Shown piece after piece: positions 36,606 through 54,785 of a DNA stretch of 64,000 nt. The notes under the pieces are model-generated. The model was not told where the DNA came from. It saw only the letters and a list, made by a program, of their open reading frames with translations, and ran no database searches. The translations under genes and the position numbers were made by a program. Source of the stretch: Thermodesulfobacteriota bacterium (GTDB taxonomy: Bacteria > Desulfobacterota_D > UBA1144 > Nemesobacterales > UBA2774); the NCBI GenBank assembly GCA_965216785.1, contig OZ244197.1, forward strand, positions 1,472,001-1,536,000, given 5' to 3'. Each line of letters starts with the position of its first letter. The stretch's first letter is position 1.

Positions 36606-39600
36606 ATGGATGATCATATAGGTTCAGCAAAAACCGATTCAGAAAGTGAGGTTAAGGATAAATCCTCACAATCCAAAGACACAACAGAGCAAAAGCAAAA
36701 CACCCGGAATAACGGCGATATTAATGCTCAGCAAAATGCTCAAGACGAGCTTATGAAAAGTAAGAACCGCCTCGAGCTAATGAGTAATATTGCCTCTGAA
36801 TTTAATTCTCACGCTACCTTGGACTCGATAATCGAGAACGCGGTCCGGAAAATAAGCGAGTTTTTCAAGGATTTCCGAATAGTTTATTCAACTATAGATA
36901 GTAAGGGGCTTATGAAATGCAAGATCTCCAGCCAGCCCGAGAGTATGGGTAGTGTAGAGGGTCTTGAAGTAGACCTGTCCGCCGAGCCCGGGTACTTACA
37001 TGCCCTTGGTGCCAAAGGTGTGCTAGTCTCTGAGGATATTACTAAAGATGAAAGATTCAGCGCTTTTAAGGAAAAGCTTTTGAGCATTAAAGCAAGAGCT
37101 CTGGTGGATGTGCCCGTATTCGATTCAAGCGGCCTGGCTGGACTTGTATGTATCGATTCTCCCGAGCCGTATAAATGGTCCGAATACGAGATTAAGACCT
37201 TAAAGGAAGCTTCCGCAAATCTGGGTCTTGCCATCAAAAAAGCCCAAATCGAACAAGAGAGAAAGGAATACGAAAATTCCTTAAACAGAACTCTCCAAAA
37301 CTTATCGCGGAAGAATACATATGAATCAATTATTAGCTCTGTCACAAGATCCGTACATCAATCTATAAATGTCCAAGAAGTTTTCGAGCACGCACTTGAT
37401 TCCATGATTAAGAATATAAAAGGCGCGAAAAACATTTCTATTTATATGGTTGAGGATAAAGATGCGGTTCTTAGAGCTTACAGAGGATACGTTGGGAAAC
37501 ATATTGAAAGGATAAGGAGAATTCCATATCCGCACGGTTCAACCTGGAAGACCATTATCGAAGGCTCGCCCAGATATGTTCCGGACGTTGAGGCTGATGA
37601 CGTACTCGGTCAGGCAGGTAGAGATTTGGGAATTCAATGCTACATAGCCATGCCTATTAAATCTGAGGGTGAATCTGTAGGGTGTATACATATAGTTTCA
37701 TTTGATAAGGACCAATTTAGCAAGGAAGAATTCTCATTACTCGAGAAGGTAGTTCAGCAGTTGGAAGCCGCAATCAAAAACGCTAGACAGGCTGAAGTCC
37801 TTCGCCAGTCTGAAGAACGCTACCGCGCCTTATTCGACCAATCCCCCGTAGGGGTATATATATTCGATACCGATTTTAAGATTACAAACTGTAACAAACG
37901 TATGGAGGAGATTCTTGATACTCCTTATGAACATATAGTTGGGATAGACATTAGCACATTTAAAAACACTCGTATATTTTCACTTATAAAAGAAGTACTT
38001 AATGGACAGCCAGGCATGTATGAAGGGTTTTGCGAAGTATCGAGCGGGCCGGTTAGGCCGTATGTATGTATCAGACTCACGCCACTCAGAGATGAAAAGC
38101 AAAACGTAGTCGGCGGCATGGCAGTGATTGAGGATATAACAGAGCGAAGACTTGCCGAAGAGAAGCTGTCTATCCAGGAAAAGCGCATTCGGTCTCTCTA
38201 TGAAATTTCTGCTGAGCCAGGGTTCGGTATTGACCAGCAGATAATACAGACCCTAAAAACGGGCTGTGACATGCTCGGATTAGACATAGGTATAATCGGT
38301 CATGTTGTAGATAAAGTTTATACGGTGCTTTATTGCTTTGATCAGTCAAATACTATTACTCAGGGGCTTAAATTCAATTTAGACATAACTTACTGCAGTA
38401 TTACACTTGCCGAAAATGACGTCGTAGCTATGGATCATGTGAAGATCTCGGAATATAGAAACCATTCTTGCTATAAGGAATTTAAGCTCGAAACCTATAT
38501 TGGGGTTCCTCTAAGTGTTAAAGGTGAGATATTCGGGACTATAAATTTCTCGAGTCCGCAGCCCAGAGAGATACCGTTTAGCAATTCTGATAAAGAATTT
38601 ATTAGACTGATGGGTAGATGGGTCAGCACAATGATCGAACGGAAGCAGACCGAAGTCATGTTGAAAGACAAGGAAGAGCTGTACAGGACTCTAGTTGAAA
38701 ACGCTCACGATCTTATTATAGAGACAAAGATCGACGGGACTGTTGTTTATATGAATTCGAACCACAAGTACCTCCTTGGTTATGATAAACCGGATCTAAT
38801 GGGAAAAACGGTATTTGACTATATCCACGAGGACGATCGCAGGCCTGTGACATCTGAGTTCATGAGGGCTATAATGTCCGATAGCGCGGCGCATTCAGTC
38901 TTCCGGTTTAAGCATAATAACGGCGAGTGGCGCTGGCTTGAGAGCACGGGAAAGTCTTTTAAAACATCAGACGGTGAGCGACGCTGGGTTATCGATTCAA
39001 GGGATATAACTCAGCGCAAAAAGACCGAGGAGCAGATCCGGAAATCGCTCAAGGAGAAGGAATCGCTCCTTCGCGAGATACACCACAGGGTGAAGAACAA
39101 TCTTCAGGTTATATCGAGCCTCCTGAGTCTTCAGTCCGATTATTCAAAAGGCGTAGATTCCTCAAGGCTATTTGAGGAGAGTCAGAACCGAATTTCCGCA
39201 ATAGCGCTAATACACGAGCAGCTATACCAGTCAGAAGACCTTGCTGAGATTGATATGGGGGAGTATATAGCCGATTTAGCTGACAACCTGCTAACGGTTT
39301 ACGGGGATGAAGGCAGTAACGTCAGCGTGGAGTTCAACACTAATGATTTGAGTGTTGACATAGACACGGCCATACCTTGCGGGCTGATTATCAACGAGCT
39401 GTTTTCTAACTGCCTTAAGCATGCTTTTAAATACTGCGGAAAAGATGGTAACAAAAAAGAGGGACTGATAAGCGTAGGGTTTAATTCTTCTACAGAGGGT
39501 CAATATATATTAAGTGTTGCGGATAACGGGTGCGGGCTGCCTCCCGGATTGGATTTCAGGGAGACCGAAACACTCGGTCTTCAGCTTGTCTGTACCCTTA

Positions 39601-39686
39601 CGGATCAGCTACATGGAGACATAGAGCTAAGTGCCGGTAAAGGGGCAAAATTTGATATAAGGTTTCCCAACCAGGTGCGTAGTTAA
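36606..39686 (+). CDS. Cytoplasmic sensor kinase GAF-GAF-PAS-GAF-PAS-HisKA_2-HATPase
   Basis: No TM segment; GAF and PAS/PAC motifs (DITERR, WRWLES); EIHHRVKNNLQ H-box; INELFSN, DNGCG, LGLQLV. Confidence 0.92.
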   Translation: MDDHIGSAKTDSESEVKDKSSQSKDTTEQKQNTRNNGDINAQQNAQDELMKSKNRLELMSNIASEFNSHATLDSIIENAVRKISEFFKDFRIVYSTIDSKGLMKCKISSQPESMGSVEGLEVDLSAEPGYLHALGAKGVLVSEDITKDERFSAFKEKLLSIKARALVDVPVFDSSGLAGLVCIDSPEPYKWSEYEIKTLKEASANLGLAIKKAQIEQERKEYENSLNRTLQNLSRKNTYESIISSVTRSVHQSINVQEVFEHALDSMIKNIKGAKNISIYMVEDKDAVLRAYRGYVGKHIERIRRIPYPHGSTWKTIIEGSPRYVPDVEADDVLGQAGRDLGIQCYIAMPIKSEGESVGCIHIVSFDKDQFSKEEFSLLEKVVQQLEAAIKNARQAEVLRQSEERYRALFDQSPVGVYIFDTDFKITNCNKRMEEILDTPYEHIVGIDISTFKNTRIFSLIKEVLNGQPGMYEGFCEVSSGPVRPYVCIRLTPLRDEKQNVVGGMAVIEDITERRLAEEKLSIQEKRIRSLYEISAEPGFGIDQQIIQTLKTGCDMLGLDIGIIGHVVDKVYTVLYCFDQSNTITQGLKFNLDITYCSITLAENDVVAMDHVKISEYRNHSCYKEFKLETYIGVPLSVKGEIFGTINFSSPQPREIPFSNSDKEFIRLMGRWVSTMIERKQTEVMLKDKEELYRTLVENAHDLIIETKIDGTVVYMNSNHKYLLGYDKPDLMGKTVFDYIHEDDRRPVTSEFMRAIMSDSAAHSVFRFKHNNGEWRWLESTGKSFKTSDGERRWVIDSRDITQRKKTEEQIRKSLKEKESLLREIHHRVKNNLQVISSLLSLQSDYSKGVDSSRLFEESQNRISAIALIHEQLYQSEDLAEIDMGEYIADLADNLLTVYGDEGSNVSVEFNTNDLSVDIDTAIPCGLIINELFSNCLKHAFKYCGKDGNKKEGLISVGFNSSTEGQYILSVADNGCGLPPGLDFRETETLGLQLVCTLTDQLHGDIELSAGKGAKFDIRFPNQVRS
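39023..39406 (+). repeat. 384-bp direct repeat, copy 1 (kinase core)
   Basis: Manual alignment to 40825-41208 gives 383/384 identical, with A39342 versus G41144. Confidence 0.93.
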
Positions 39687-41488
39687 TGAGTGTATCTAAT
39701 CCGGAGTCGTTTACAGAAAGTCTCGAAAATTACAGGGAAATATTTCAGAATTTAAATGTTATGGTCACCATTCATGACGAACATGGTGATATAGCTGTCG
39801 TAAATAAAAGGGTTGTTGATTTTCTTGGATATGCCGAAGACGAGATGCTTTCAGTAAGCATTACCGATATGACTACTGCAGAATCTCACCCCTCGTTTTT
39901 AGAACTACTCGAAACTACAATACGAAGTGGTTCATCAACAAAGGAAGTATCTTTCAGAAAGAAAAACGGTGATGTGATCCCCGCAAAAGTGTCTTCAAAT
40001 CTGATTCGGATAAATGGCGAGAAATATATTCTGAGCGTAATGGATGAGGTGACAGAGCTCAAGGAAGTGGAAAAGGAGCTCACGGAAAAAAACCTGTTTA
40101 TCGACTCCATCATTGAGAATATTCCTAACACGATTTTCGTAAAAGATGCGAAAGAGCTTAGGTTTGTGAGGTTTAATAAGGCAGGGGAAGAGCTTCTCGG
40201 ATACTCGAGGAGTGAAATGCTGGGCAAGAACGACTACGACTTTTTCCCCGGAGAAGAAGCCGATTTTTTCACAAATAAAGATAGGGCTGTTCTAAATAGC
40301 AAAGAACTTTTAGATATATCGGAAGAGCAAATACACACAAAAAATATGGGTGTAAGGACGCTTCATACAAAAAAAATCACTATTAACGACGAACATGGGA
40401 ACCCAAAGTATCTCTTAGGAATTTCAGAGGATATTACTGAGCGCAAGAAAGCAGAGGATATGCTCCGGGAAAATGAGGAGTACTATCGTTCAGTAGTTGA
40501 AAATGCTCATGATCTCATAATAGAAACCAATAACTCTGGAACATTTATATATGTGAGTCCCAACCACAAGACTGTCTTAGGGTATGAACCTCAAGAGCTA
40601 GTAGGTACAAGCATTTTTAAAAACATTCATCCCGATGATGTAAAAGATGTTGTTTCAAAATTTTCACAAGCTGTTGTTAGTCAATCTAATGGCCACGGTA
40701 TTTTCAGGTACAGGCATAGTAGTGGTGAATGGAGGTGGTTTGAGACTAACGGCAGGCCCATTAATACTCCTTCTGGTCAGGTGAGGATCATCTTACATTC
40801 CCGCGACATAACAGAGCGTGTGAGGACCGAGGAGCAGATCCGGAAATCGCTCAAGGAGAAGGAATCGCTCCTTCGCGAGATACACCACAGGGTGAAGAAC
40901 AATCTTCAGGTTATATCGAGCCTCCTGAGTCTTCAGTCCGATTATTCAAAAGGCGTAGATTCCTCAAGGCTATTTGAGGAGAGTCAGAACCGAATTTCCG
41001 CAATAGCGCTAATACACGAGCAGCTATACCAGTCAGAAGACCTTGCTGAGATTGATATGGGGGAGTATATAGCCGATTTAGCTGACAACCTGCTAACGGT
41101 TTACGGGGATGAAGGCAGTAACGTCAGCGTGGAGTTCAACACTGATGATTTGAGTGTTGACATAGACACGGCCATACCTTGCGGGCTGATTATCAACGAG
41201 CTGTTTTCCAATTGTTTGAAGCACGCATTTACTCCGGTGATTTCTGGTACAACAAACGGAACTATAAAAAATCTAATATCCGTAGGATTCAGATCCGAGG
41301 CTAGTGGTGAACTTGTTCTCTCGGTGAAAGACAACGGCGTAGGACTTCCGGAGGGACTTGATTATAAAAATACCGAGTCCCTTGGTCTTCAGCTTGTTTG
41401 TACGCTTACAGATCAGCTCGGTGGTAGTATAGAAGTTAAGAACGGGGTTGGATGTGAATTCAGAATCACTTTCCCCTCTGAGGTTTGA
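39686..41488 (+). CDS. Cytoplasmic sensor kinase PAS-PAS-PAS-HisKA_2-HATPase
   Basis: TAATG stop/start overlap with the previous gene; three PAS domains; EIHHRVKNNLQ; DNGVG. Confidence 0.92.
   Translation: MSVSNPESFTESLENYREIFQNLNVMVTIHDEHGDIAVVNKRVVDFLGYAEDEMLSVSITDMTTAESHPSFLELLETTIRSGSSTKEVSFRKKNGDVIPAKVSSNLIRINGEKYILSVMDEVTELKEVEKELTEKNLFIDSIIENIPNTIFVKDAKELRFVRFNKAGEELLGYSRSEMLGKNDYDFFPGEEADFFTNKDRAVLNSKELLDISEEQIHTKNMGVRTLHTKKITINDEHGNPKYLLGISEDITERKKAEDMLRENEEYYRSVVENAHDLIIETNNSGTFIYVSPNHKTVLGYEPQELVGTSIFKNIHPDDVKDVVSKFSQAVVSQSNGHGIFRYRHSSGEWRWFETNGRPINTPSGQVRIILHSRDITERVRTEEQIRKSLKEKESLLREIHHRVKNNLQVISSLLSLQSDYSKGVDSSRLFEESQNRISAIALIHEQLYQSEDLAEIDMGEYIADLADNLLTVYGDEGSNVSVEFNTDDLSVDIDTAIPCGLIINELFSNCLKHAFTPVISGTTNGTIKNLISVGFRSEASGELVLSVKDNGVGLPEGLDYKNTESLGLQLVCTLTDQLGGSIEVKNGVGCEFRITFPSEV
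40825..41208 (+). repeat. 384-bp direct repeat, copy 2 (kinase core)
   Basis: Offset 1802 nt from copy 1; single mismatch. Confidence 0.93.
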
Positions 41489-46539: not shown

Positions 46540-46845
46540 CTAAGACGCTTTTTTTTGAGCAGGACCGGCAAAGTGACGGTCGCGTATAGGGTCGTTGTCG
46601 AGATCTGAGATCAGATATCCGATCCGGTATTGATCTCCCGGGAAATAGTAGAGCCGTATACCCTGGGGCGTGAGTAGATACAGCCCGTCTTTTTTGGTGT
46701 CATCGGGCAATTCTACTTCATATATAGGGAAGCCGACGGTGCCGCCCCCGATATTTATCTGACGTCTCTCATTTCTTAATTTTTTTATGTTTTTCGCAAT
46801 ACCCCAGACCTTGGGGAAGATCTGGCCGTTTACAGTTATTTTCAT
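46540..46845 (-). CDS. Hypothetical protein
   Basis: 101-aa ORF with GAGGT RBS, co-oriented with neighbours. Confidence 0.65.
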   Translation of the reverse strand: MKITVNGQIFPKVWGIAKNIKKLRNERRQINIGGGTVGFPIYEVELPDDTKKDGLYLLTPQGIRLYYFPGDQYRIGYLISDLDNDPIRDRHFAGPAQKKAS

Positions 46846-46872: not shown

Positions 46873-47235
46873 TTAGGCTGATATCTTGATTTCTGTAATA
46901 AGCCCCGTGCAGGTGATTATTTTATCTAAATTTTCGTTCCTGGGATATAAATAGCGGTGCTCGGGTTTTTCTCCGCAACTGCGGCAAACTTCCTCCTCCT
47001 CTGATATATCAACCCAGATTGCGCAAGCGCCGCAGTAATCTCCCATCTCCTCATACCAGGCTAAATGAGAATACAAGAGCTCATTCAATCCTCTCTTGCC
47101 CAGGGTGGAAGCCCACTCAGTCAGGTCCTGGGTAATTCTCTCTCTGAATTTAGGCGGAACCTCAGACAGGTCGCCCGAATAGATTTGGTCTTGGTTAACA
47201 TAAATTTTACAGCTAAAAGACTTTTCGCCTGTCAT
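46873..47235 (-). CDS. Hypothetical protein with zinc-ribbon-like CxxC...CxxC
   Basis: YCGAC...VCRSCG; 120 aa, fills the gap on the operon strand. Confidence 0.65.
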   Translation of the reverse strand: MTGEKSFSCKIYVNQDQIYSGDLSEVPPKFRERITQDLTEWASTLGKRGLNELLYSHLAWYEEMGDYCGACAIWVDISEEEEVCRSCGEKPEHRYLYPRNENLDKIITCTGLITEIKISA

Positions 47236-47307: not shown

Positions 47308-49218
47308 TCAGTTGCTCATAGCCTCAGCGCCGAGCACGCTGGCCACAGCATCCTGTATCTGGTCCACTGAGAAGGGTTTCTTGATTATCTTGTACGAGCC
47401 TTCTGAAATCTCATCAGGAAGCTGTTCCTCTGAGCGTCCGCTTATAATTATCACAGTAGAGTTCGGGTCAATCGTTCCTATGTCTCTTAGTATTTCGACG
47501 CCGTCTTTTTTGGGCATCGAAAGGTCAAGGAATATAATGTCAAAATGGTTTTGCTTAATTAGCCCGAGAGCACTCTCACCGTTACCGGCTGTCATAACGT
47601 TGTGCCCCGTACTTGATAAACACTCCTTTATTATATCACGGATAAATTCTTCATCGTCCACGACAAGTATGTTCCCCTTTCTTCTAAGCTCCAGCACCTT
47701 CGCGCTCTCGACTTTTTGTCCTGTTTTAGTGCTGACGCTTTTGCTTAGAGTCTGCACATTTGGCAGGAGTATGGTGAAAGTGGTTCCTTTGTCAATCTCG
47801 CTGCTCACGTCGATTCGTCCGCCGTGGCGCTCGATTATAGCATAAATTACGGACAGGCCGAGCCCCGTCCCTGATTTTGTGCCTTCACTGAACTTTGTGG
47901 TGAAAAACGGTTCGAAGATTCTGGGCAGATTCTCACTGGATATTCCGCTGCCTGTATCTGAGAAGTCGATCCTTACGTTATTGCCTTCTAGTTTTGTGCT
48001 TATAGCTATGGCGCCGCCGCCCGGCATGGCGTGTTTTGAGTTAATTGCTAGGTTCAGGAAAACCTGCTGCAGCTCGCCCAAATTCAGTCTGATAGCCGGC
48101 ACTTTTTCGTAGTTCCGGAGAATCTTGATTCCCTCTGTTTCAAATGTGTGCTCGACTAGGCTAAGTGCGTCGTCAATAACGTTCTCTATCTGAGCGACCT
48201 GGAACTTCTCGCCCTTTTGCCTTGAGAAGCTTAGGAGTTTATTCACTATTTCGACAGCCCTATCTGAGGCTTTTTCTATAACATCGAGGTCTTTTCTCAC
48301 CCCCTCCATGTTATCTCTTGTAATCGCGAGACTCGTGTAGCCGATTATTCCCGAGAGTATGTTGTTAAATTCGTGCGCGACGCCTGCCGCGAGCTGCCCG
48401 ACGCCGGACATCTTAGCCGAATGGATAAGCTGCGCCTCGAGTTTTTTCTTCTCTGTAATATCTTCGGTCGCTACGATAACGCCGAATATCTCTCCTGTCT
48501 CAAAATCCACTAGCGGAGAGAGAGATACCTCAAGGAATTCATCTCCCGACTTAAGCTCGTGCTTAGTGGAATAGGAGGCTTCGCTAAGTATCTTTGGAAT
48601 AATAGTCTCAAAATTTATACCGTCTAAGAGGTCGCTGAGTTTCTCGCCAATGCAGTCCTTTTTAAAAATCTCCTTTGTCTTTGGATTCGCGCTCTGTATA
48701 ACAAGGTTCCTGTCAGTAGTGATAATACTTTCAATCGTGCTGTTAAGAGTGTTCTCAAGCTGACGGTTTCTTTCTTTAACTTTTTGTTCAAGGTTTGTGT
48801 TTAGCTCTTTTAAGTCGCTTAAAAGTCCCGTGTTCTGTTTGTACAGGTCGTATCTTTCAACAGCGTGCTCTATGACGCTTTTGAGTTTGCTGTAATCAAG
48901 CGGTTTGATAAGGTAGTCAAAGGCGCCGTTCTGCACCGCTTCCACAGCTGTTTCAAGAGAGGCAAACCCGGTCATTAGGATTACCGGAATATGCGGGTCT
49001 TTGTTCCTTATTTCCTCAAGTAGGTCTATACCGCTTTTTTTAGGCATTCTAATGTCGGAAATCACAACATCAAAAGACTTAACCTTTAAGAACTCGATTG
49101 CCTTCTCGCAGTTATTAGCGGCTAGTACTTCATAGCCTTCCTTAGTTAGGATGTCGGCAATGATCTTCAGAATCAGATGTTCATCGTCAACGACTAATAC
49201 CCTTTTAGTGTTGTCCAT
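47308..49218 (-). CDS. Hybrid kinase REC-coiled coil-PAS-HisKA-HATPase-REC
   Basis: VLVVDDE...SDIRMP...DYLIKP; AHEFNNIL; NLAINS, SDTGSG, FEPFFTTK, GTGLGL; ILVVDDE...LDLSMP...KPF; AGGAG RBS before ATG 49218. Confidence 0.93.
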   Translation of the reverse strand: MDNTKRVLVVDDEHLILKIIADILTKEGYEVLAANNCEKAIEFLKVKSFDVVISDIRMPKKSGIDLLEEIRNKDPHIPVILMTGFASLETAVEAVQNGAFDYLIKPLDYSKLKSVIEHAVERYDLYKQNTGLLSDLKELNTNLEQKVKERNRQLENTLNSTIESIITTDRNLVIQSANPKTKEIFKKDCIGEKLSDLLDGINFETIIPKILSEASYSTKHELKSGDEFLEVSLSPLVDFETGEIFGVIVATEDITEKKKLEAQLIHSAKMSGVGQLAAGVAHEFNNILSGIIGYTSLAITRDNMEGVRKDLDVIEKASDRAVEIVNKLLSFSRQKGEKFQVAQIENVIDDALSLVEHTFETEGIKILRNYEKVPAIRLNLGELQQVFLNLAINSKHAMPGGGAIAISTKLEGNNVRIDFSDTGSGISSENLPRIFEPFFTTKFSEGTKSGTGLGLSVIYAIIERHGGRIDVSSEIDKGTTFTILLPNVQTLSKSVSTKTGQKVESAKVLELRRKGNILVVDDEEFIRDIIKECLSSTGHNVMTAGNGESALGLIKQNHFDIIFLDLSMPKKDGVEILRDIGTIDPNSTVIIISGRSEEQLPDEISEGSYKIIKKPFSVDQIQDAVASVLGAEAMSN

Positions 49219-51739
49219 CTTCCTCTCCTTTAACGTCATTATTTTTATTGCTTGGGAGCTCTATTGTAAATACCGTGCCTTTCCCCTTTTCGCTCCGGAC
49301 GATTATCCTACCCTGGTGCTCTTCTATTATCTTATAGGCAATCGATAATCCGAGCCCTGTTCCCATGTCTTTCTTTGTGAAAAACGGGTCAAATATTTTG
49401 CTCAGGTCTTCCTCTTCTATACCCAAGCCCGTGTCTTTGAAGCTCACATATACATTTTCAGTTTCTTGGTTAATCAACATATTTTTTTCCCAACCGGTCT
49501 CTATCGTTAGGTCACCACCCTCGGGCATTGCCTGTATAGCGTTTACTATGATGTTAATAAACACCTGCCACAGCTGGTTAGAATCGGCCATTATGTCCGG
49601 TACGTCTTCTTTTAAATTCTTGATAAGGTTCACGTTGTTATCCGAGAGCTGTTTTCTAATTAGTACTACTACGTTATCAACTACGTTATTTACGTTTACC
49701 TTTTCAAAATGGGGCGGCTCTGCCTTTGAAAACTTAAGCAGGCTGTCGATAAGGGTGTTTGTTCTTTCTATTTCGTGCTTTATGTAATCCAGATACTCCC
49801 CGACTACTTCTTCGTTTTCATCGTTTGTCAGATAGGTGGAGAGGTAGTATCTCGCCCCCTCGATAATGTTGAGCGGATTGCGAATCTCGTGAGCCACTCC
49901 CGCGGCAAGCTGGCCGATGGCAGACATTTTTTCCGCATGAACCAATTGATCCTGAGTGTCTTTTAGCTCGGTGTTTGCAAGCTCGAGTTTTTTCGCATAG
50001 TCCTCGACAAGCTTGAATGCGAGCGCGTTTTCTACTGCGATTGCGCTCTGGTTTGCAAGCAAGCGGAGCAGCGTGATATCCATAGTCGTATAAGTGAGTC
50101 CCGATTTTTTATCTCCCAGAGCAATGAACCCGATCAGCTGCTTCTTAAAGAACAGCGGCATTATTAGAGAAGCGTCAAATCTCTTAAACTCGTTCATAAG
50201 CTCCTCTGATCGGTTTATGTATTTCTCGTCGGCTATGAGGTCTTCTTTGAATATCTCTTTTTTATACCTGTTGAAGCTCTCAACAAGAACGTTTGTGCTT
50301 TCTATATTTTTATTCCCTTGTATATCTGTATTATCGCTGCTGTAGTAAGCCTCATAGATCCCAGTGTCTTCGTTATAAATTGCGACAGTTACCGGGCTTG
50401 AGAACATAGTGCTCTCGATCACGCTGATGATCTTGTCTATGATCATATCTATACTCAGAAGAGAAGTCATAGCGTAGCTCACTTCCTCTACCGTTCTTCT
50501 GTAGTCATATTTCTTTCTAAAAAACGTTAGGTCCACAATTTCCTGTATACGGTTTTTAAGCGGATTAAGCGCAAGTACCAAGAAGCTGCTCATGATCAGG
50601 AAGAAAGCCGGGTTCTTCCAGCCGCCGTGCTGTGCGTAGGCCATGTTAAAGGTTAGGACCATAAGAGCGAACACTGCGCCCACTGTTCCGGTTAGCAGTC
50701 CGTAAGTGATCGTTTTCTGTATGATTACATCAATATCGAAGAGTTTATGCTTGACGATGGCATAACCAATCGATAGGGGAAACAGTATTACTGGCAGGGC
50801 CATTAAATTAAAAGGTATGTTTAACTTGAAAATTGTAATGCCTACAGCCGCCGCGGCGGGAATTATCAGACCCAGTAAGCAACCTAAGAAAATAATCTGA
50901 GCTCTTTGCTTCTCTAAGGATGATTGTGAACGAAGGAATGTGAATAAAGACGAAAGAGGGAATATTGCGGCGCTTAATAGTAGATATATCCAGATAGAAA
51001 TATAAAGGATTTTCCATGTGCTGTAGGAATCGAAGAAAATCATTATAAGAGCGTAGATAGCCAGTGATAATATTAGAAACGGCAGCGTTGCGAAGTATCG
51101 GGATTTTTCTTTTATCTTAGTATCCGAAGGGAAGATGAACATCAGGTAAATCCCAAACATAGGGCTGAAAATCATCGCGAAAAATGTAATTTTGTCAAAG
51201 TAGTATGTAGCCTGCGCGTCAAATGAACCCACAAACCATATGCCAAGCGCAGTGCAGAAGAGGAAAAACGCTTTACTGGCTAAATCATCGGGCTTTATGT
51301 AAATTACAAAAACGCCGATTGTAAAAAATACTACCCCGATTAGATAAATGACCCCGAAGACAAGAAGCAGGTCTTTAGCAGAGAGTTTCTGTACTGGTAT
51401 TGTAATGTCGAAGAAGCGGTTGTTTCTCTCGATCGTATAATCAACTTTTTCACCGACTGATAGCGTACCGATAATATTTTCAATATCCACAGGAGCGGAT
51501 ACTTCCTGACCGTTGATTAGTATTACTTTGTCACTGAACCTTTTTAGCTTATCGCCGTTTACGGTCGAGGGGGCGATATCAGTGATAACCAGGTTGTCGT
51601 AGAAGAAAAACCCCGGGTATGTTTTGTCTACCCACTTGAGCCCAAGTATGAAATTGGCTATACAAAAGCTAAGCAGCACTACTACTACGATGCCGAATAG
51701 GGGTCTAGAAAAATTTTCAGAATTCTGCTCGAACGTCAT
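49205..51739 (-). CDS. Membrane sensor histidine kinase: TM, PDZ-like domain, ~9 TM, GAF, HisKA, HATPase
   Basis: DKVILINGQEV...GEKVDYTIER (PDZ-like); about ten hydrophobic helices in total; LGDKKSG..Y...D...LANQSAIAVEN (GAF); AHEIRNPL; NIIVNAIQAM; DTGLG; GTGLGL. Confidence 0.9.
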   Translation of the reverse strand: MTFEQNSENFSRPLFGIVVVVLLSFCIANFILGLKWVDKTYPGFFFYDNLVITDIAPSTVNGDKLKRFSDKVILINGQEVSAPVDIENIIGTLSVGEKVDYTIERNNRFFDITIPVQKLSAKDLLLVFGVIYLIGVVFFTIGVFVIYIKPDDLASKAFFLFCTALGIWFVGSFDAQATYYFDKITFFAMIFSPMFGIYLMFIFPSDTKIKEKSRYFATLPFLILSLAIYALIMIFFDSYSTWKILYISIWIYLLLSAAIFPLSSLFTFLRSQSSLEKQRAQIIFLGCLLGLIIPAAAAVGITIFKLNIPFNLMALPVILFPLSIGYAIVKHKLFDIDVIIQKTITYGLLTGTVGAVFALMVLTFNMAYAQHGGWKNPAFFLIMSSFLVLALNPLKNRIQEIVDLTFFRKKYDYRRTVEEVSYAMTSLLSIDMIIDKIISVIESTMFSSPVTVAIYNEDTGIYEAYYSSDNTDIQGNKNIESTNVLVESFNRYKKEIFKEDLIADEKYINRSEELMNEFKRFDASLIMPLFFKKQLIGFIALGDKKSGLTYTTMDITLLRLLANQSAIAVENALAFKLVEDYAKKLELANTELKDTQDQLVHAEKMSAIGQLAAGVAHEIRNPLNIIEGARYYLSTYLTNDENEEVVGEYLDYIKHEIERTNTLIDSLLKFSKAEPPHFEKVNVNNVVDNVVVLIRKQLSDNNVNLIKNLKEDVPDIMADSNQLWQVFINIIVNAIQAMPEGGDLTIETGWEKNMLINQETENVYVSFKDTGLGIEEEDLSKIFDPFFTKKDMGTGLGLSIAYKIIEEHQGRIIVRSEKGKGTVFTIELPSNKNNDVKGEEDGQH

Positions 51740-51763
51740 TTTATTTTACTAACTGCTCCATTT

Positions 51764-54523
51764 TTAGCTAATAACCGGACTCTTGCTATAAATATCCCAG
51801 TCGGTATTAACCCTTGATCCTAATTTTTCGATAGCTCTTCTTGACGCTATGTTATCTTCCAAAATCCATGTCAATGCGGCCCTTTCGTATCCGTTATGTA
51901 TCATTGCTTCACATGCCCTGCCTAAAAGACAGGCTCCGAGCCCCTTTCCACGGAATGTCGGTGATGTACCGACAATAGTTACCGCTCCCTTGTGAATCTT
52001 TCTAAGCTCAAGCGGAATCTTGATAAGCTTGAGGAGTTTTGTCTCCCCCGCGAGATCTCTGAAGATGGCCGCATAGTCCGGGAACGCCCCTACAAACCCC
52101 ACGGGCTCGCCGCGCTGCTCCGCAATAAGCCAGAATTCGGGCTCAATCAGTGACTTGAAGTCCTCGGCGAACTCTAAGAGCTCTTCGTATTCAAGGGGGA
52201 CGTAACCCCATTGCTTGGCCAGTGAAGCATTGTACAGATCGGTGACAGTACGAACTTCCTCCGTCCACTTAGACTTATCGAGCGGTCTAATGCGGATATC
52301 GGACAAAGAGGGATTGTGAGCGTGTCCGTGTACAGTTTTGATATTCTCAGGAGATTTCAGGTCAAGTGTGTAATGCACAAGGTTTTTAATAGGCGTAAAT
52401 CCGGAGTTTTTGAAATACTCGTGGTAGTAGGGGTGAGTGTATATCTGGAGGAATGATGGTATGCCACCATAATTACTTGCAAGGAACCCTCCTCCGAACA
52501 GTCCGAACAGTCCGTTCACAGGGCCCCTTACTTCCTTACAGCCTTCAGAGTCCAAAAACTCACTTGCCTTTCCAAGTAGCAGCTCCACAGCCACACTTTT
52601 GTCGGGAAGCGCTTCAAAGAATCCTACAAATCCTGTTTTAGTATTGTGGTATCGGTTGAAATATTTGTCTACAAATGCGCTTACTGTGCCAACTAGCTTA
52701 CCATCTTCTTCAACGATGAACCTCTTGCCATAAACTTTTCTCTGGTAATAGTACTTGTTGCTGATTAGCTTTATCTGATCCTTGATTAGAAAATACGGTA
52801 CCCAGGCGGGGCAGTCTTTATAAACCTCCCAGGAAAATCTTACGGATTTTTCTATATCTTCTTTAGAGCTGATTTCTTTGACCGAGTATTTCTCTCCGTC
52901 CTCATAGTTAAATGTAAAGGGTTTATCTATAATCCCGTATTTTCTTCCCAACTTCTCAAATACTTCAAGAGTAGTATCCAAGTCTTCCTGAGTATGAGTG
53001 GCCATAACACTAACCCTGAAGCGCTCGTGTCCTTTGGGCACTGCCGGGTGAGGAATAGCGTTTGTGTATATGCCCTCTTCGTGCAAATTCCTGCTCATTT
53101 TTTTAAGGGTAAGCTCGTCACCAATCATGACGGGGATTATCGCGGTCTCGCTCTGCGCGGTATCAAACCCAAGGCTCTTAAGGTTTTCCCTCATATACCT
53201 TATGTTTCCCCAGAGGTTTTTATGGAGCTCTTTATCCGTTTGCATGACCTCTATGGCAGCAAGTGCCGAGGCTGCGACTGAAGGCGGGAAATTGGTGGAG
53301 AAGAAAAAAGAGCGCGTATAATATCTTAGGAAATTCACAACCTCTTTTGTTGAGGCTACGAACCCACCGACTGCCCCCAAAGACTTGCTGAGAGTGCCCA
53401 TGACGAGGTCGACTTCCCCGGGTTTCATTTGAAAGTAACTCGGTGTGCCGCTTCCCATCTCTCCGACGACGCCTGTTGCGTGTGCTTCATCGACCATTAT
53501 TTTGGCTCCGTACTCGTGAGCCACTTCCGTTAGCTGCGCCAGCGGAGCGATGTCTCCGTCCATACTGTAAACGCCGTCTATCAGTACAAGCTTGCCCTGG
53601 AAATTATCAATGTTTCTTTTTAGTACTCCCCTGAGGCTCTCTACGTCTGAGTGCTTGAATGTTCTGAAAGAGCCCGCGGAAAGAATGCAGCCGTCTATGA
53701 TGCTCGCGTGCGCGAGTCTGTCTATGGCTGCCAGGTCGCCGTTTCTTACCAGTGCTTGAATGCATCCGAGGTTTGTTACATACCCGCTAGGGAATACCAA
53801 AGCGTCTTCACAGCCTTTGAGCTCTGCAAGCCTCATCTCGAGCTTTCTGTGTATGTCGAATGAGCCTGCCAGAAGAGGTACCGAGCCCGCGCCGGCCCCG
53901 TATTTATCCATCATTTTCTGCGCGGCGCTGATGACTTTGGGATGGGCGGTCAGGCCTAGGTAATTGTTGCTGCCCATCATGACCATCTCTTTTTCTTCCC
54001 CGGTAAAATCATCCTCGATCATAACCCTGTTAGAGGACATGGACGTAAGCGGTCTTCTGTATCTGATATAGCCCTTCTCCGTCATATCGGTGCGATACTC
54101 CCAGAACACGTCTGCTTTCTTAAAAATGTCGGGGTCCGGATAGTCAGGGAAATCGGCTAGAGAGTAGTTGTCGGAATTGAGCTTGTTAGAGCCTGACTGA
54201 AGATATTTTTTTATTTTAGATCTGTCGGATTTGGAAATATTTACAAACTTAATACCGAGTCCAATCTGCTCTGAATCGCTCTTTACGGAGTGCACAGCTT
54301 CACAATATACTTTAACAGGGAAAGAGGATTCAGAGAGGTCCAGCTCTAAAAAGAGTTTAGAGCCCGGCTTATAGAGCTCTTGGGTCTCAACAAACATCCC
54401 GTCTTCCGATAGGTCTGTTGCGATACCAAAAACTGTGCCGCTTCCCCGAAGCAGTACCTTGAAGCTTGCATGAGTTCTTTCGAATCTCCTGCGCTCGCCG
54501 CTTTTTTCAATTAAAATACCCAC
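51764..54523 (-). CDS. PilZ / alpha-oxoamine synthase (SPT-AONS-CqsA family) / YghO-bCerS-like GNAT triple fusion
   Basis: PilZ RRFER...DLSEDG; GSNNYLGL, HASIIDG, DGVYSMDGD, DEAH, GTLSKS (PLP Lys); GNAT part AWVP, GFVGFFEA, RGPVN, PYY, WGYVP, FRGKGLG, WILEDN; GGAGG RBS before GTG. Confidence 0.9.
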   Translation of the reverse strand: MGILIEKSGERRRFERTHASFKVLLRGSGTVFGIATDLSEDGMFVETQELYKPGSKLFLELDLSESSFPVKVYCEAVHSVKSDSEQIGLGIKFVNISKSDRSKIKKYLQSGSNKLNSDNYSLADFPDYPDPDIFKKADVFWEYRTDMTEKGYIRYRRPLTSMSSNRVMIEDDFTGEEKEMVMMGSNNYLGLTAHPKVISAAQKMMDKYGAGAGSVPLLAGSFDIHRKLEMRLAELKGCEDALVFPSGYVTNLGCIQALVRNGDLAAIDRLAHASIIDGCILSAGSFRTFKHSDVESLRGVLKRNIDNFQGKLVLIDGVYSMDGDIAPLAQLTEVAHEYGAKIMVDEAHATGVVGEMGSGTPSYFQMKPGEVDLVMGTLSKSLGAVGGFVASTKEVVNFLRYYTRSFFFSTNFPPSVAASALAAIEVMQTDKELHKNLWGNIRYMRENLKSLGFDTAQSETAIIPVMIGDELTLKKMSRNLHEEGIYTNAIPHPAVPKGHERFRVSVMATHTQEDLDTTLEVFEKLGRKYGIIDKPFTFNYEDGEKYSVKEISSKEDIEKSVRFSWEVYKDCPAWVPYFLIKDQIKLISNKYYYQRKVYGKRFIVEEDGKLVGTVSAFVDKYFNRYHNTKTGFVGFFEALPDKSVAVELLLGKASEFLDSEGCKEVRGPVNGLFGLFGGGFLASNYGGIPSFLQIYTHPYYHEYFKNSGFTPIKNLVHYTLDLKSPENIKTVHGHAHNPSLSDIRIRPLDKSKWTEEVRTVTDLYNASLAKQWGYVPLEYEELLEFAEDFKSLIEPEFWLIAEQRGEPVGFVGAFPDYAAIFRDLAGETKLLKLIKIPLELRKIHKGAVTIVGTSPTFRGKGLGACLLGRACEAMIHNGYERAALTWILEDNIASRRAIEKLGSRVNTDWDIYSKSPVIS

Positions 54524-54640
54524 AAGCGATCCTCCAAAAAAGCCGTCAACTTTTAGGGTCTTCTTTAATATACTTAATAAACTTCTTGATGCCTAGGCGA
54601 TAATTATCCTATAATATTGAATAAAATGCAAGCGGTTCGC

Positions 54641-54738
54641 TCTTCGGTAGCCCAACTACCATAGGCGAAAAATAATTTCGCCCTTAGGCTTGAAGCTTTG
54701 CGTCCTATCTTTTCAGATAGTTTGCCGTTTCGGAATGA
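54641..54738 (-). ncRNA. Cyclic di-GMP-I (GEMM) riboswitch
   Basis: Minus strand GGCAAA-CUAUCU-GAAA-AGAUAG-GACGCAAA-GCUUCAAG-CCUAAG-GGCGAAA(UUAUU)UUUCGCC-UAUGG-UAGUUGGGC-UACCGAA: GAAA tetraloop on P2, canonical 11-nt receptor in P3, conserved junctions. Confidence 0.93.
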
Positions 54739-54756
54739 CCTCATGACCCACTATAA

Positions 54757-54785
54757 AGTTTAGTGCAACTTTTAAATACGCGCAA
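54757..54785 (-). promoter_or_regulatory. Putative sigma70 promoter upstream of the riboswitch
   Basis: Minus strand TTGCGC (54785-54780)-N17-TAAACT (54762-54757), placing the start just 5' of the aptamer. Confidence 0.45.

Follow-up and report, generated by a model that had tools for sequence, protein, structure and literature searches.

The window analysed here is a 64,000-nucleotide stretch of contig OZ244197.1, from a member of Candidatus Dadabacteria whose genome is a single contig of 3.1 Mb. It carries a four-element cassette, all on the minus strand and in the following order: a cyclic di-GMP (c-di-GMP)-I riboswitch, a fusion of PilZ, alpha-oxoamine synthase (AOS) and GNAT acyltransferase domains, a membrane histidine kinase (HK1; one transmembrane helix (TM), PDZ, nine further TM, GAF and kinase domains) and a hybrid histidine kinase (HK2). 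By comparing this cassette across the phylum, we found that the enzyme and the input part of HK1 (TM1, PDZ and a predicted seven-helix, or 7TM, fold) move together from lineage to lineage, whereas the kinase core stays with that of the host. We consider it somewhat probable that they form a synthase-receptor pair for a released, diffusible N-acyl aminoketone, with enzyme and input exchanged as one block between Dadabacteria lineages.

A sequence-only reading of the window had listed a promoter, the riboswitch, the fusion, a PDZ/multi-TM/GAF sensor kinase 24 bp downstream of it and a REC-PAS-HK-REC kinase overlapping the latter by 14 bp; all of these elements were found at their positions and on the minus strand, with a reservation for the promoter given below. 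Catalytic and phospho-acceptor residues are intact in the fusion, HK1 and HK2.

Joint exchange of enzyme and sensor input

Of 120 phylum genomes, 37 were found to have the PilZ-AOS clade, 42 the sensor and 27 the GNAT, which always stands at the cassette; no GNAT was found in 11 of the 37 AOS genomes. The AOS gene lies 5' of an HK1-type sensor, on the same contig and strand and within about 3.5 kb, in 36 of 37 genomes, so that PilZ-AOS genes are linked to this kinase type, as the sequence-only reading had supposed. This count takes G001 as linked across a contig break within the gene, and the G034 locus stops at a contig edge.

The exchange is seen in genome G028. Its dnaB, aroC, HK2 and kinase core are those of a typical genus g3 genome (mostly 85-98% identity; aroC 90-93% and TM9-10 93-96% to its congeners). 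Identity to the same congeners is 51-53% in AOS, 40-42% in GNAT, 24-28% in PDZ and 41-42% in TM2-8, and the closest relative of these parts is G005, from another genus (AOS 70%, GNAT 51%, PDZ 38%, TM2-8 62%). At the DNA level, identity between G028 and its congeners drops within PilZ and recovers near HK1 codon 325. Trees were built with IQ-TREE from 28 selected rows, the tested groups being named after a first tree; G032, whose two genes are interrupted by stops, and the sensor paralogues from G035, G048 and G052 were kept out. An allele that we call B (G028, G005, L084 and L089) forms one clade with 100/100 support in both the sensor-input and the AOS trees, and this clade is rejected in the kinase-core tree (approximately unbiased test, p 2e-106). 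L093 and L109 behave likewise (94/89 and 100/98; rejected by the kinase core, p 1e-35). Grouping G028 with its own genus is rejected for AOS (p 3.5e-31) and has p 3e-4 on the sensor tree, a value that is partly confounded as the other g3 rows do not form one clade there. Eight genomes were added later as a fresh test, and all three with an allele-B enzyme (G066, G067 and G068) carry an allele-B sensor, G067 and G068 doing so on two further backbones. The active-site motifs of allele B also differ (SSNYLG or TSNYLG, and DSLSK), as would be expected of an enzyme that uses another substrate.

Over 37 dereplicated loci, a partial Mantel test relates sensor to AOS when the backbone is given (r 0.60, p 2e-4), and AOS to backbone weakly when the sensor is given (0.14, p 0.07); these p-values are overstated, kin loci not being independent. 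Within allele A, that of the window (16 loci), the sensor tracks the C-terminal half of the GNAT (r 0.73) more closely than AOS (0.27). The block that varies is shorter in this allele: between G006 and G011, identity is 98% in the core and 96% in AOS, and falls to 61% in the GNAT C-half and to 60% in the sensor. Of 14 discordant pairs picked by hand, 12 break at HK1 residues 307-325, in the last helix of the predicted 7TM fold and beside a conserved YAIVKHKLFDI motif; among the control pairs for this analysis, 4 of the 8 intended carried sub-allele differences. From breakpoints and an AlphaFold2 model, we delimit an exchangeable input from residue 1 to about 325 (51739-50765, minus strand; TM1, PDZ loop and seven-helix bundle) and a conserved transmitter that follows the host lineage (50734-49250, minus strand; TM9-10, GAF, HisKA with H617, and HATPase). 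GNAT presence requires 2 changes on the sensor tree versus 6 on the core tree (36 rows), and five classes of enzyme slot require 8 and 12, respectively (40 rows). The covariation of synthase and receptor input that marks a quorum-sensing pair was found, with G044, L095 and G065 as exceptions.

The slot between aroC and HK1 can hold the fusion, PilZ-AOS alone, AOS with a reductase or a methyltransferase, a separate GNAT, a methyltransferase alone, or nothing; the three-domain PilZ-AOS-GNAT fusion is one allele among several. Dadabacteria in which a methyltransferase, a reductase or nothing takes this place have a different sensor.

Several loci show further variation. The pyridoxal phosphate (PLP) lysine is missing in the PilZ-AOS of L079:1426-3072, L148:6900-8552 (G063) and L048:1-1422 (G034), which read TLSHAL or SMSNVF; in L079 and G063 the lysine-less PilZ-AOS is followed by an aptamer and a methyltransferase, as though the old enzyme had been kept as a pseudo-enzyme and superseded by a new synthase. 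The first 35 residues of the G048 methyltransferase (L047:7972-9084) are nearly those of the PilZ-less AOS encoded by its congener G052 (L039:13610-14965), and the same aptamer lies 5'; this is likely an in-frame gene replacement. In genus g17 (L041 from G044, L095 and L150), GGDEF, HD-GYP-like and GGDEF-EAL genes surround the cassette, as read in L041 and with similar frames in the others. A secreted porin-like protein with a weak Alginate_exp match (L040:7689-9488 and relatives) is often encoded 5' of PilZ-AOS in GNAT-less loci, and a 34% relative is present in the window's genome at G000:C1:824861-826450.

Homologous 7TM sensors occur in a second lineage of nine metagenome loci (L115-L119 and L121-L124), eight of them beside an FAD synthetase gene; these sensors have no PDZ, profile-match the HK1-type sensors (99.7%, E 2e-26) and include one, L117, that passes the HisKA_7TM cut-off. 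Their 7TM inputs are 16-36% identical and the remainders 79-95%; the breakpoint, at the motif also seen in Dadabacteria, lies at residue 216-222 in every one of 36 pairs. The genes 5' of these sensors encode a thioesterase, a protein resembling fatty-acyl reductases, an AOS, an acyltransferase with DUF362, a ketosynthase together with a membrane methyltransferase, and a protein resembling methyltransferases (matched by BLAST only), besides one gene without an identification, two loci being cut by contig ends. Among distant loci with scanned upstream genes, 9 of 17 have an acyl- or methyl-handling enzyme directly 5' on the same strand, a count made without a control set. At L131:1544-3774, an autoinducer-synthase-like GNAT plus ThiF gene stands directly 5' of two long frames, a HisKA_7TM kinase and a membrane-protein-like one. 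In L125 and L127-L129, long proteins are arrayed in tandem, several of which are relatives of the sensor module.

The fusion enzyme and its c-di-GMP elements

The fusion is a 919-residue frame (54523-51764, minus strand) and a predicted two-step N-acyl aminoketone synthase. Its PilZ domain (54496-54197, minus strand; residues 10-109) is the sole PilZ match in the genome and carries RxxxR (R12-R16) and DxSxxG (D37-G42), which fit the RxxxR and D/NxSxxG motifs of c-di-GMP-binding PilZ domains and are retained in most relatives. The AOS domain follows (54172-52928, minus strand; Aminotran_1_2 at 179-521) and belongs to the alpha-oxoamine synthase family, with H272, D345, H348 and the PLP lysine K380 all present; its best match in the PDB is 7poa (E 4e-87). 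Val215 aligns with a valine of this Thermus-type enzyme, which we take to be a gate favouring small amino acids. None of the named AOS enzymes fits: the domain is below all three Spt cut-offs (373/640, 340/500 and 295/670), far below CqsA/LqsA (NF005526 score 194.6 against 428; CqsA in the PDB at E 2e-34, far below other AOS enzymes), below BioF (TIGR00858, 399 against 426) and under the cut-offs of both the Kbl and ALAS models. Biotin synthesis has its own bioF-bioA pair in this genome, a separate AOS gene beside a bioA-like gene, as read from the sequence.

The GNAT domain (52891-51767, minus strand), whose C-terminal half (about 52378-51782) covaries with the sensor, aligns end to end with YghO of E. 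coli BL21(DE3) (22% over 385 columns, E 2e-30). It is the only YghO/bCerS homologue in the genome and has full-length matches in plasmid sphingolipid-type loci; among solved structures, no relative of the GNAT passed E 0.001. YghO is described as the orthologue of the Caulobacter acyltransferase CC_1154 (PMC9386255), and bCerS as acylating the Spt product prior to reduction, giving oxidised ceramide (PMC11087976). Given this homology and order of reactions, an N-acyl aminoketone is the expected product class, the prediction extending neither to the chains nor to the amino acid. Of the Spt plus bCerS parallel that had been drawn, the bCerS half is real but distant, and the Spt half fell with the cut-offs above.

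Whilst the Spt loci examined carry an acyl carrier protein (ACP), an acyl ligase, an epimerase or lptFG, the window locus has no ACP, acyl ligase, epimerase, reductase, lptFG, acpR or aasR. Spt genes of the rhodobacterial type have acpR and aasR as neighbours; the best AcpR match in the genome reaches E 0.001 over just 34 residues. A short-chain dehydrogenase/reductase (SDR) elsewhere in the genome is 27.5% identical to the E. coli CerR-type epimerase; an HpnA-like SDR found 5' of aroC in relatives was dropped as a CerR candidate, being absent from the window's locus. Natural Spt-like and bCerS-like fusions without PilZ exist in P0064 (801 aa) and P0065 (780 aa); they too score below the Spt cut-offs, and have GSRxLxG where the window's AOS reads GSVPLLAG.

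The riboswitch aptamer (54736-54643, minus strand) is the sole Rfam match in the window, scoring 81 bits for RF01051 against a gathering score of 35 (E 2.4e-14, model positions 1-87). The positions that we take to be G20, A47 and C92 hold G, A and C (CGGCAAAC, GACGCAAAG and CUACCGAA). An A at position 20 would indicate a cyclic GMP-AMP (cGAMP)-type aptamer, an assignment that was dropped given the G. The roles of these ligand residues are described in PMC9049102. Because the aptamer ligand residues and the PilZ motifs are intact, binding of c-di-GMP by both is likely; gating of the cassette by c-di-GMP is predicted from the intact motifs only. Around the cassette's relatives, the aptamer is present at 15 of 19 fusion loci, the other four having no upstream DNA, and at 4 of 8 more distant loci. 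It lies directly 5' of HK1 in G059, and 5' of the inserted enzyme in G063, G065 and L079.

Two candidate promoters frame the aptamer. The one that had been noted before, P1 (TTGCGC-17-TAAACT; 54785-54757, minus strand), lies 5' of it and has a similar pattern at 32 of 35 distinct related aptamers, though it falls under the threshold of a consensus scan. P2 (TTGCAT-17-GATAAT; 54631-54603, minus strand), directly 3' of the aptamer, had been missed and came from the alignment; with its fixed 17-bp spacing, the pattern occurs at 23 of 35 related loci and in the window, a count that is not independent as the pattern was derived from the same loci, and 18 times genome-wide. The consensus promoter and terminator scan listed neither P1 nor P2. 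A weak terminator that it did list at 54642-54630 was set aside, not being conserved in relatives, and the leader folds no better than shuffled sequences (z -0.94).

Genome-wide, there are seven c-di-GMP-I aptamers, four GGDEF domains and the one PilZ match. One GGDEF protein has a receiver-like N-terminus, as read from open reading frames (ORFs). The other aptamers, again as read from ORFs, lie ahead of a pilM-like gene and of genes for secreted proteins, two of these beside sugar-modifying genes; that at G000:C1:231122-231205 (minus strand) lies 5' of the pilM-like gene and of more type IV pilus assembly-like genes.

The membrane sensor and the hybrid kinase

HK1 (51739-49205, minus strand; 844 aa) starts 24 bp after the fusion, as had been noted, and has the order TM1-PDZ-9TM-GAF-HisKA-HATPase. 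Its GAF, HisKA and HATPase domains were found; the PDZ is weak in the window protein (Pfam E 0.055), is matched in 14 of 20 aligned relatives, and is among the Foldseek matches of the model (best E 1.7e-3). AlphaFold2 gives ten membrane helices with the PDZ loop after the first (predicted local distance difference test score, pLDDT, 83.9). Helices 2-8 align with 8oyx (VIA Z 14.1, rmsd 3.2, 200 aligned), a score that helical bundles reach, and with mGlu5 (VIA Z 13.0, rmsd 3.4, 207 aligned), near the helical-bundle background; the top 50 structural rows are nearly all of the G protein-coupled receptor (GPCR) type, with Foldseek E above 0.001. A Foldseek search with the full kinase returned kinase cores alone, and a plasmid search yielded no full sensor homologue. 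HisKA_7TM (PF16927) does not match the window's HK1 and matches 2 of 20 relatives (best E 5.4e-8); these two, and the profile match to the second-lineage sensors, connect the region with that family. The membrane module matches 22,243 clusters at E 0.001 and 600 at 1e-30.

HK2 (49239-47308, minus strand; 643 aa, REC-PAS-HisKA-HATPase-REC) is the predicted relay partner of HK1. Its likely start is the second ATG, at 49218: a GGAG site precedes it, and the 14-bp overlap with HK1 holds from there. D62, H289 and D572, counted from the first ATG, are intact. HK2 lies downstream of HK1 in most related loci and follows the host lineage. Of the two kinases, HK1 alone has an input that varies with the enzyme; the proposal that both sense the product finds support in covariation for HK1 and not for HK2.

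A proposed synthase-receptor pair and its rivals

In the mechanism that we favour, AOS would condense an acyl-thioester with a small amino acid, following the chemistry of its family, and the GNAT would N-acylate the resulting aminoketone, as its homology and fusion suggest. The PDZ-capped 7TM bundle of HK1 would take up the product, a step to which the joint exchange points, and HK1 would phosphorylate REC1 of HK2 and so relay the signal onward, as the gene overlap and intact sites suggest. Synthesis would be tuned by c-di-GMP via aptamer and PilZ, tying the signal to the surface-attached state, and block exchange of enzyme and input would give signal dialects. If true, this would be an undescribed chemical communication system with dialects, in which ceramide-pathway enzymes are reused for signalling and the signal synthase is directly under c-di-GMP at both the RNA and the protein level. 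The natural allele pairs make it testable by crossing cognate and non-cognate combinations.

The layout had been likened to CqsA/CqsS of Vibrio and LqsA/LqsS of Legionella, quorum-sensing systems for alpha-hydroxyketones that also place an AOS-family synthase beside a membrane histidine kinase. The synthase-plus-sensor part of this proposal is sustained by the linkage and the joint exchange, whereas the AOS falls under the CqsA/LqsA cut-off and no test here made HK1, of ComP-like or HisKA_7TM-type architecture, a CqsS relative. CqsA and CqsS are reported to have matched specificities (PMC3285556), with the ligand bound in the membrane domain of CqsS (PMC13729885). Unlike Cqs and Lqs, the cassette has a fused acyltransferase and PilZ, a riboswitch, a ten-TM receptor with PDZ and GAF, and exchange across unrelated chemistries. 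ComP is described as having a predicted topology of ten TM helices, a PDZ loop between TM1 and TM2, and a cytoplasmic alpha/beta part with the kinase (PMC9620489), and the Bacillus comQXP pherotypes as having a variable N-terminal sensor on a conserved cytoplasmic part (PMC4008528). HK1 models likewise place the PDZ between TM1 and TM2 of ten, a likeness of predicted topology. Differences from ComQXP are the small-molecule enzymes in place of a peptide precursor and prenyltransferase, the Gram-negative host, a HisKA rather than HisKA_3 core, and a hybrid kinase in place of ComA; at the locus there is no comQ or comX upstream and no comA downstream, the neighbours being the fusion and HK2. Staphylococcal agrBDC is a pherotype system of similar kind. 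On the favoured reading, the cassette would work like Cqs and ComQXP; it belongs to neither.

Among other systems, Spt-bCerS-CerR of Caulobacter, with YghO in E. coli BL21(DE3), shares the sequence of an AOS and then a YghO/bCerS-family GNAT. Its Spt and bCerS are described as cytoplasmic (PMC11087976, PMC9386255). The cassette differs in that its AOS is not Spt, its GNAT is 22% identical, acpR, aasR, cerR and lptFG are absent from the locus, PilZ is fused and a sensor is linked. The methyltransferase alleles of the Dadabacteria slot recall PhcB/PhcS of Ralstonia, described as a methyltransferase synthase with a sensor kinase (PMC10576176), although they match no PhcB-type model. In Vfm of Dickeya, biosynthetic polymorphism is reported to give signal specificity (PMC9306890); the covarying partner there is a permease. 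A literature search found no description of the present system, subscription journals being largely outside its coverage.

A number of observations weigh against the synthase-receptor reading. Enzyme and input are adjacent, and a single recombination moves both whatever their function, so the trees cannot split coupling from linkage; the sensor follows the nearest, last enzyme more than AOS, which plain linkage predicts likewise. The YAIVKHKLFDI motif may be a recombination anchor for reasons of its own, 2 of the 14 breakpoints lie elsewhere (537 and 262), and the discordant pairs and clades were picked after viewing the trees and are not independent. G044 and L095 combine a G056-like AOS with an L101-like sensor, and G065 has the G044 AOS (93%) with a new sensor, behind an inserted zinc dehydrogenase. 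Orphan sensors (L081-L088, L097, L045 from G036 and L061 from G042) stand directly after aroC with no enzyme, and without HK2 wherever downstream DNA is available; they nest in the GNAT-associated sensor clade and are possible eavesdropping receptors. Paralogous sensors also occur without an upstream enzyme. The GPCR-like 7TM fold is a prediction whose Z of 13-14 is near the helical-bundle background and shows no function, and the membrane module is common, with 7,587 clusters at E 1e-10. Regarding c-di-GMP, no aptamer was found at the G046, G036 or G035 loci, no conserved terminator or structure masking the ribosome-binding site follows the aptamer among related loci, and P2 could bypass it, so that part of transcription may escape the switch. 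Lastly, a doubly acylated product may not diffuse.

In a first rival reading, HK1 senses the product within the producer's own membrane, as a private read-out of lipid state or c-di-GMP and not as a signal between cells. We hold it unlikely: it does not readily explain why deep alleles, such as those that separate G006 from G011, are shared among genera, nor does it account well for the orphan sensors or the varying periplasmic PDZ loop. Distinctly improbable, in our judgement, is a c-di-GMP-controlled synthase of a ceramide-type membrane lipid, with the kinases as mere neighbours and a hitch-hiking sensor region. The full-length YghO/bCerS homology of the GNAT, the fusions P0064 and P0065 and the CerR-like SDR elsewhere in the genome speak for it, but E. 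coli Spt is no nearer to the AOS (34%) than to the genome's BioF (36%), the locus does not resemble Spt loci, 11 of the 37 AOS genomes have no detected GNAT and the breakpoints cluster at a domain edge. A synthase-receptor pair appears likelier than bulk ceramide synthesis because the exchange pattern is that of comQXP-type pherotypes; the matched specificities of CqsA and CqsS show the same pattern.

Diversifying blocks of enzyme and sensor, with varying tailoring enzymes, would also be expected of a competition system, in which the enzyme would make an antagonistic or kin-discriminating metabolite, with HK1 detecting it to trigger protection or more synthesis. We give this a slightly smaller chance again, as the window's locus has no conserved exporter or immunity gene and the porin-like gene occurs in some relatives only. 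The poorest prospect, in our view, is covariation through mutual binding: CqsA is reported to bind and inhibit CqsS (PMC13729885), and the GNAT C-half tracks the sensor most closely, yet CqsA binds the intracellular kinase part, which does not vary here, the periplasmic PDZ varies too, and non-homologous enzymes fill the slot.

Extending the synthase-receptor reading beyond Dadabacteria, we suggest, tentatively and with rather less than even confidence, a widespread and so far undescribed class of bacterial communication in which a fixed kinase chassis accepts a plug-in synthase and a matching GPCR-fold 7TM receptor, swapped at one motif. The plug-in synthase would be an AOS (with or without a ceramide-synthase-like acyltransferase), a methyltransferase, a reductase, a thioesterase or a ketosynthase, and the Dadabacteria would make ceramide-like signals under double c-di-GMP control, the first ligands for receptors of the HisKA_7TM type. 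If the synthase-receptor reading is true, it would offer a class of candidate ligands for bacterial seven-helix sensors, a very large family of orphans that PMC6944256 lists without a ligand.

Downstream of HK2, on the minus strand, lie two small genes without Pfam matches, of 120 aa (46873-47235; two CxxC pairs) and 101 aa (46540-46845). Both were rejected as members of the system on a search with the 120-aa gene, which is found in 99 of 120 phylum genomes (0 of 19 in family f9). On the opposite strand, 6 kb from the cassette, 36606-41488 encodes a 1026-aa frame and a 600-aa triple-PAS HisKA_2 kinase.

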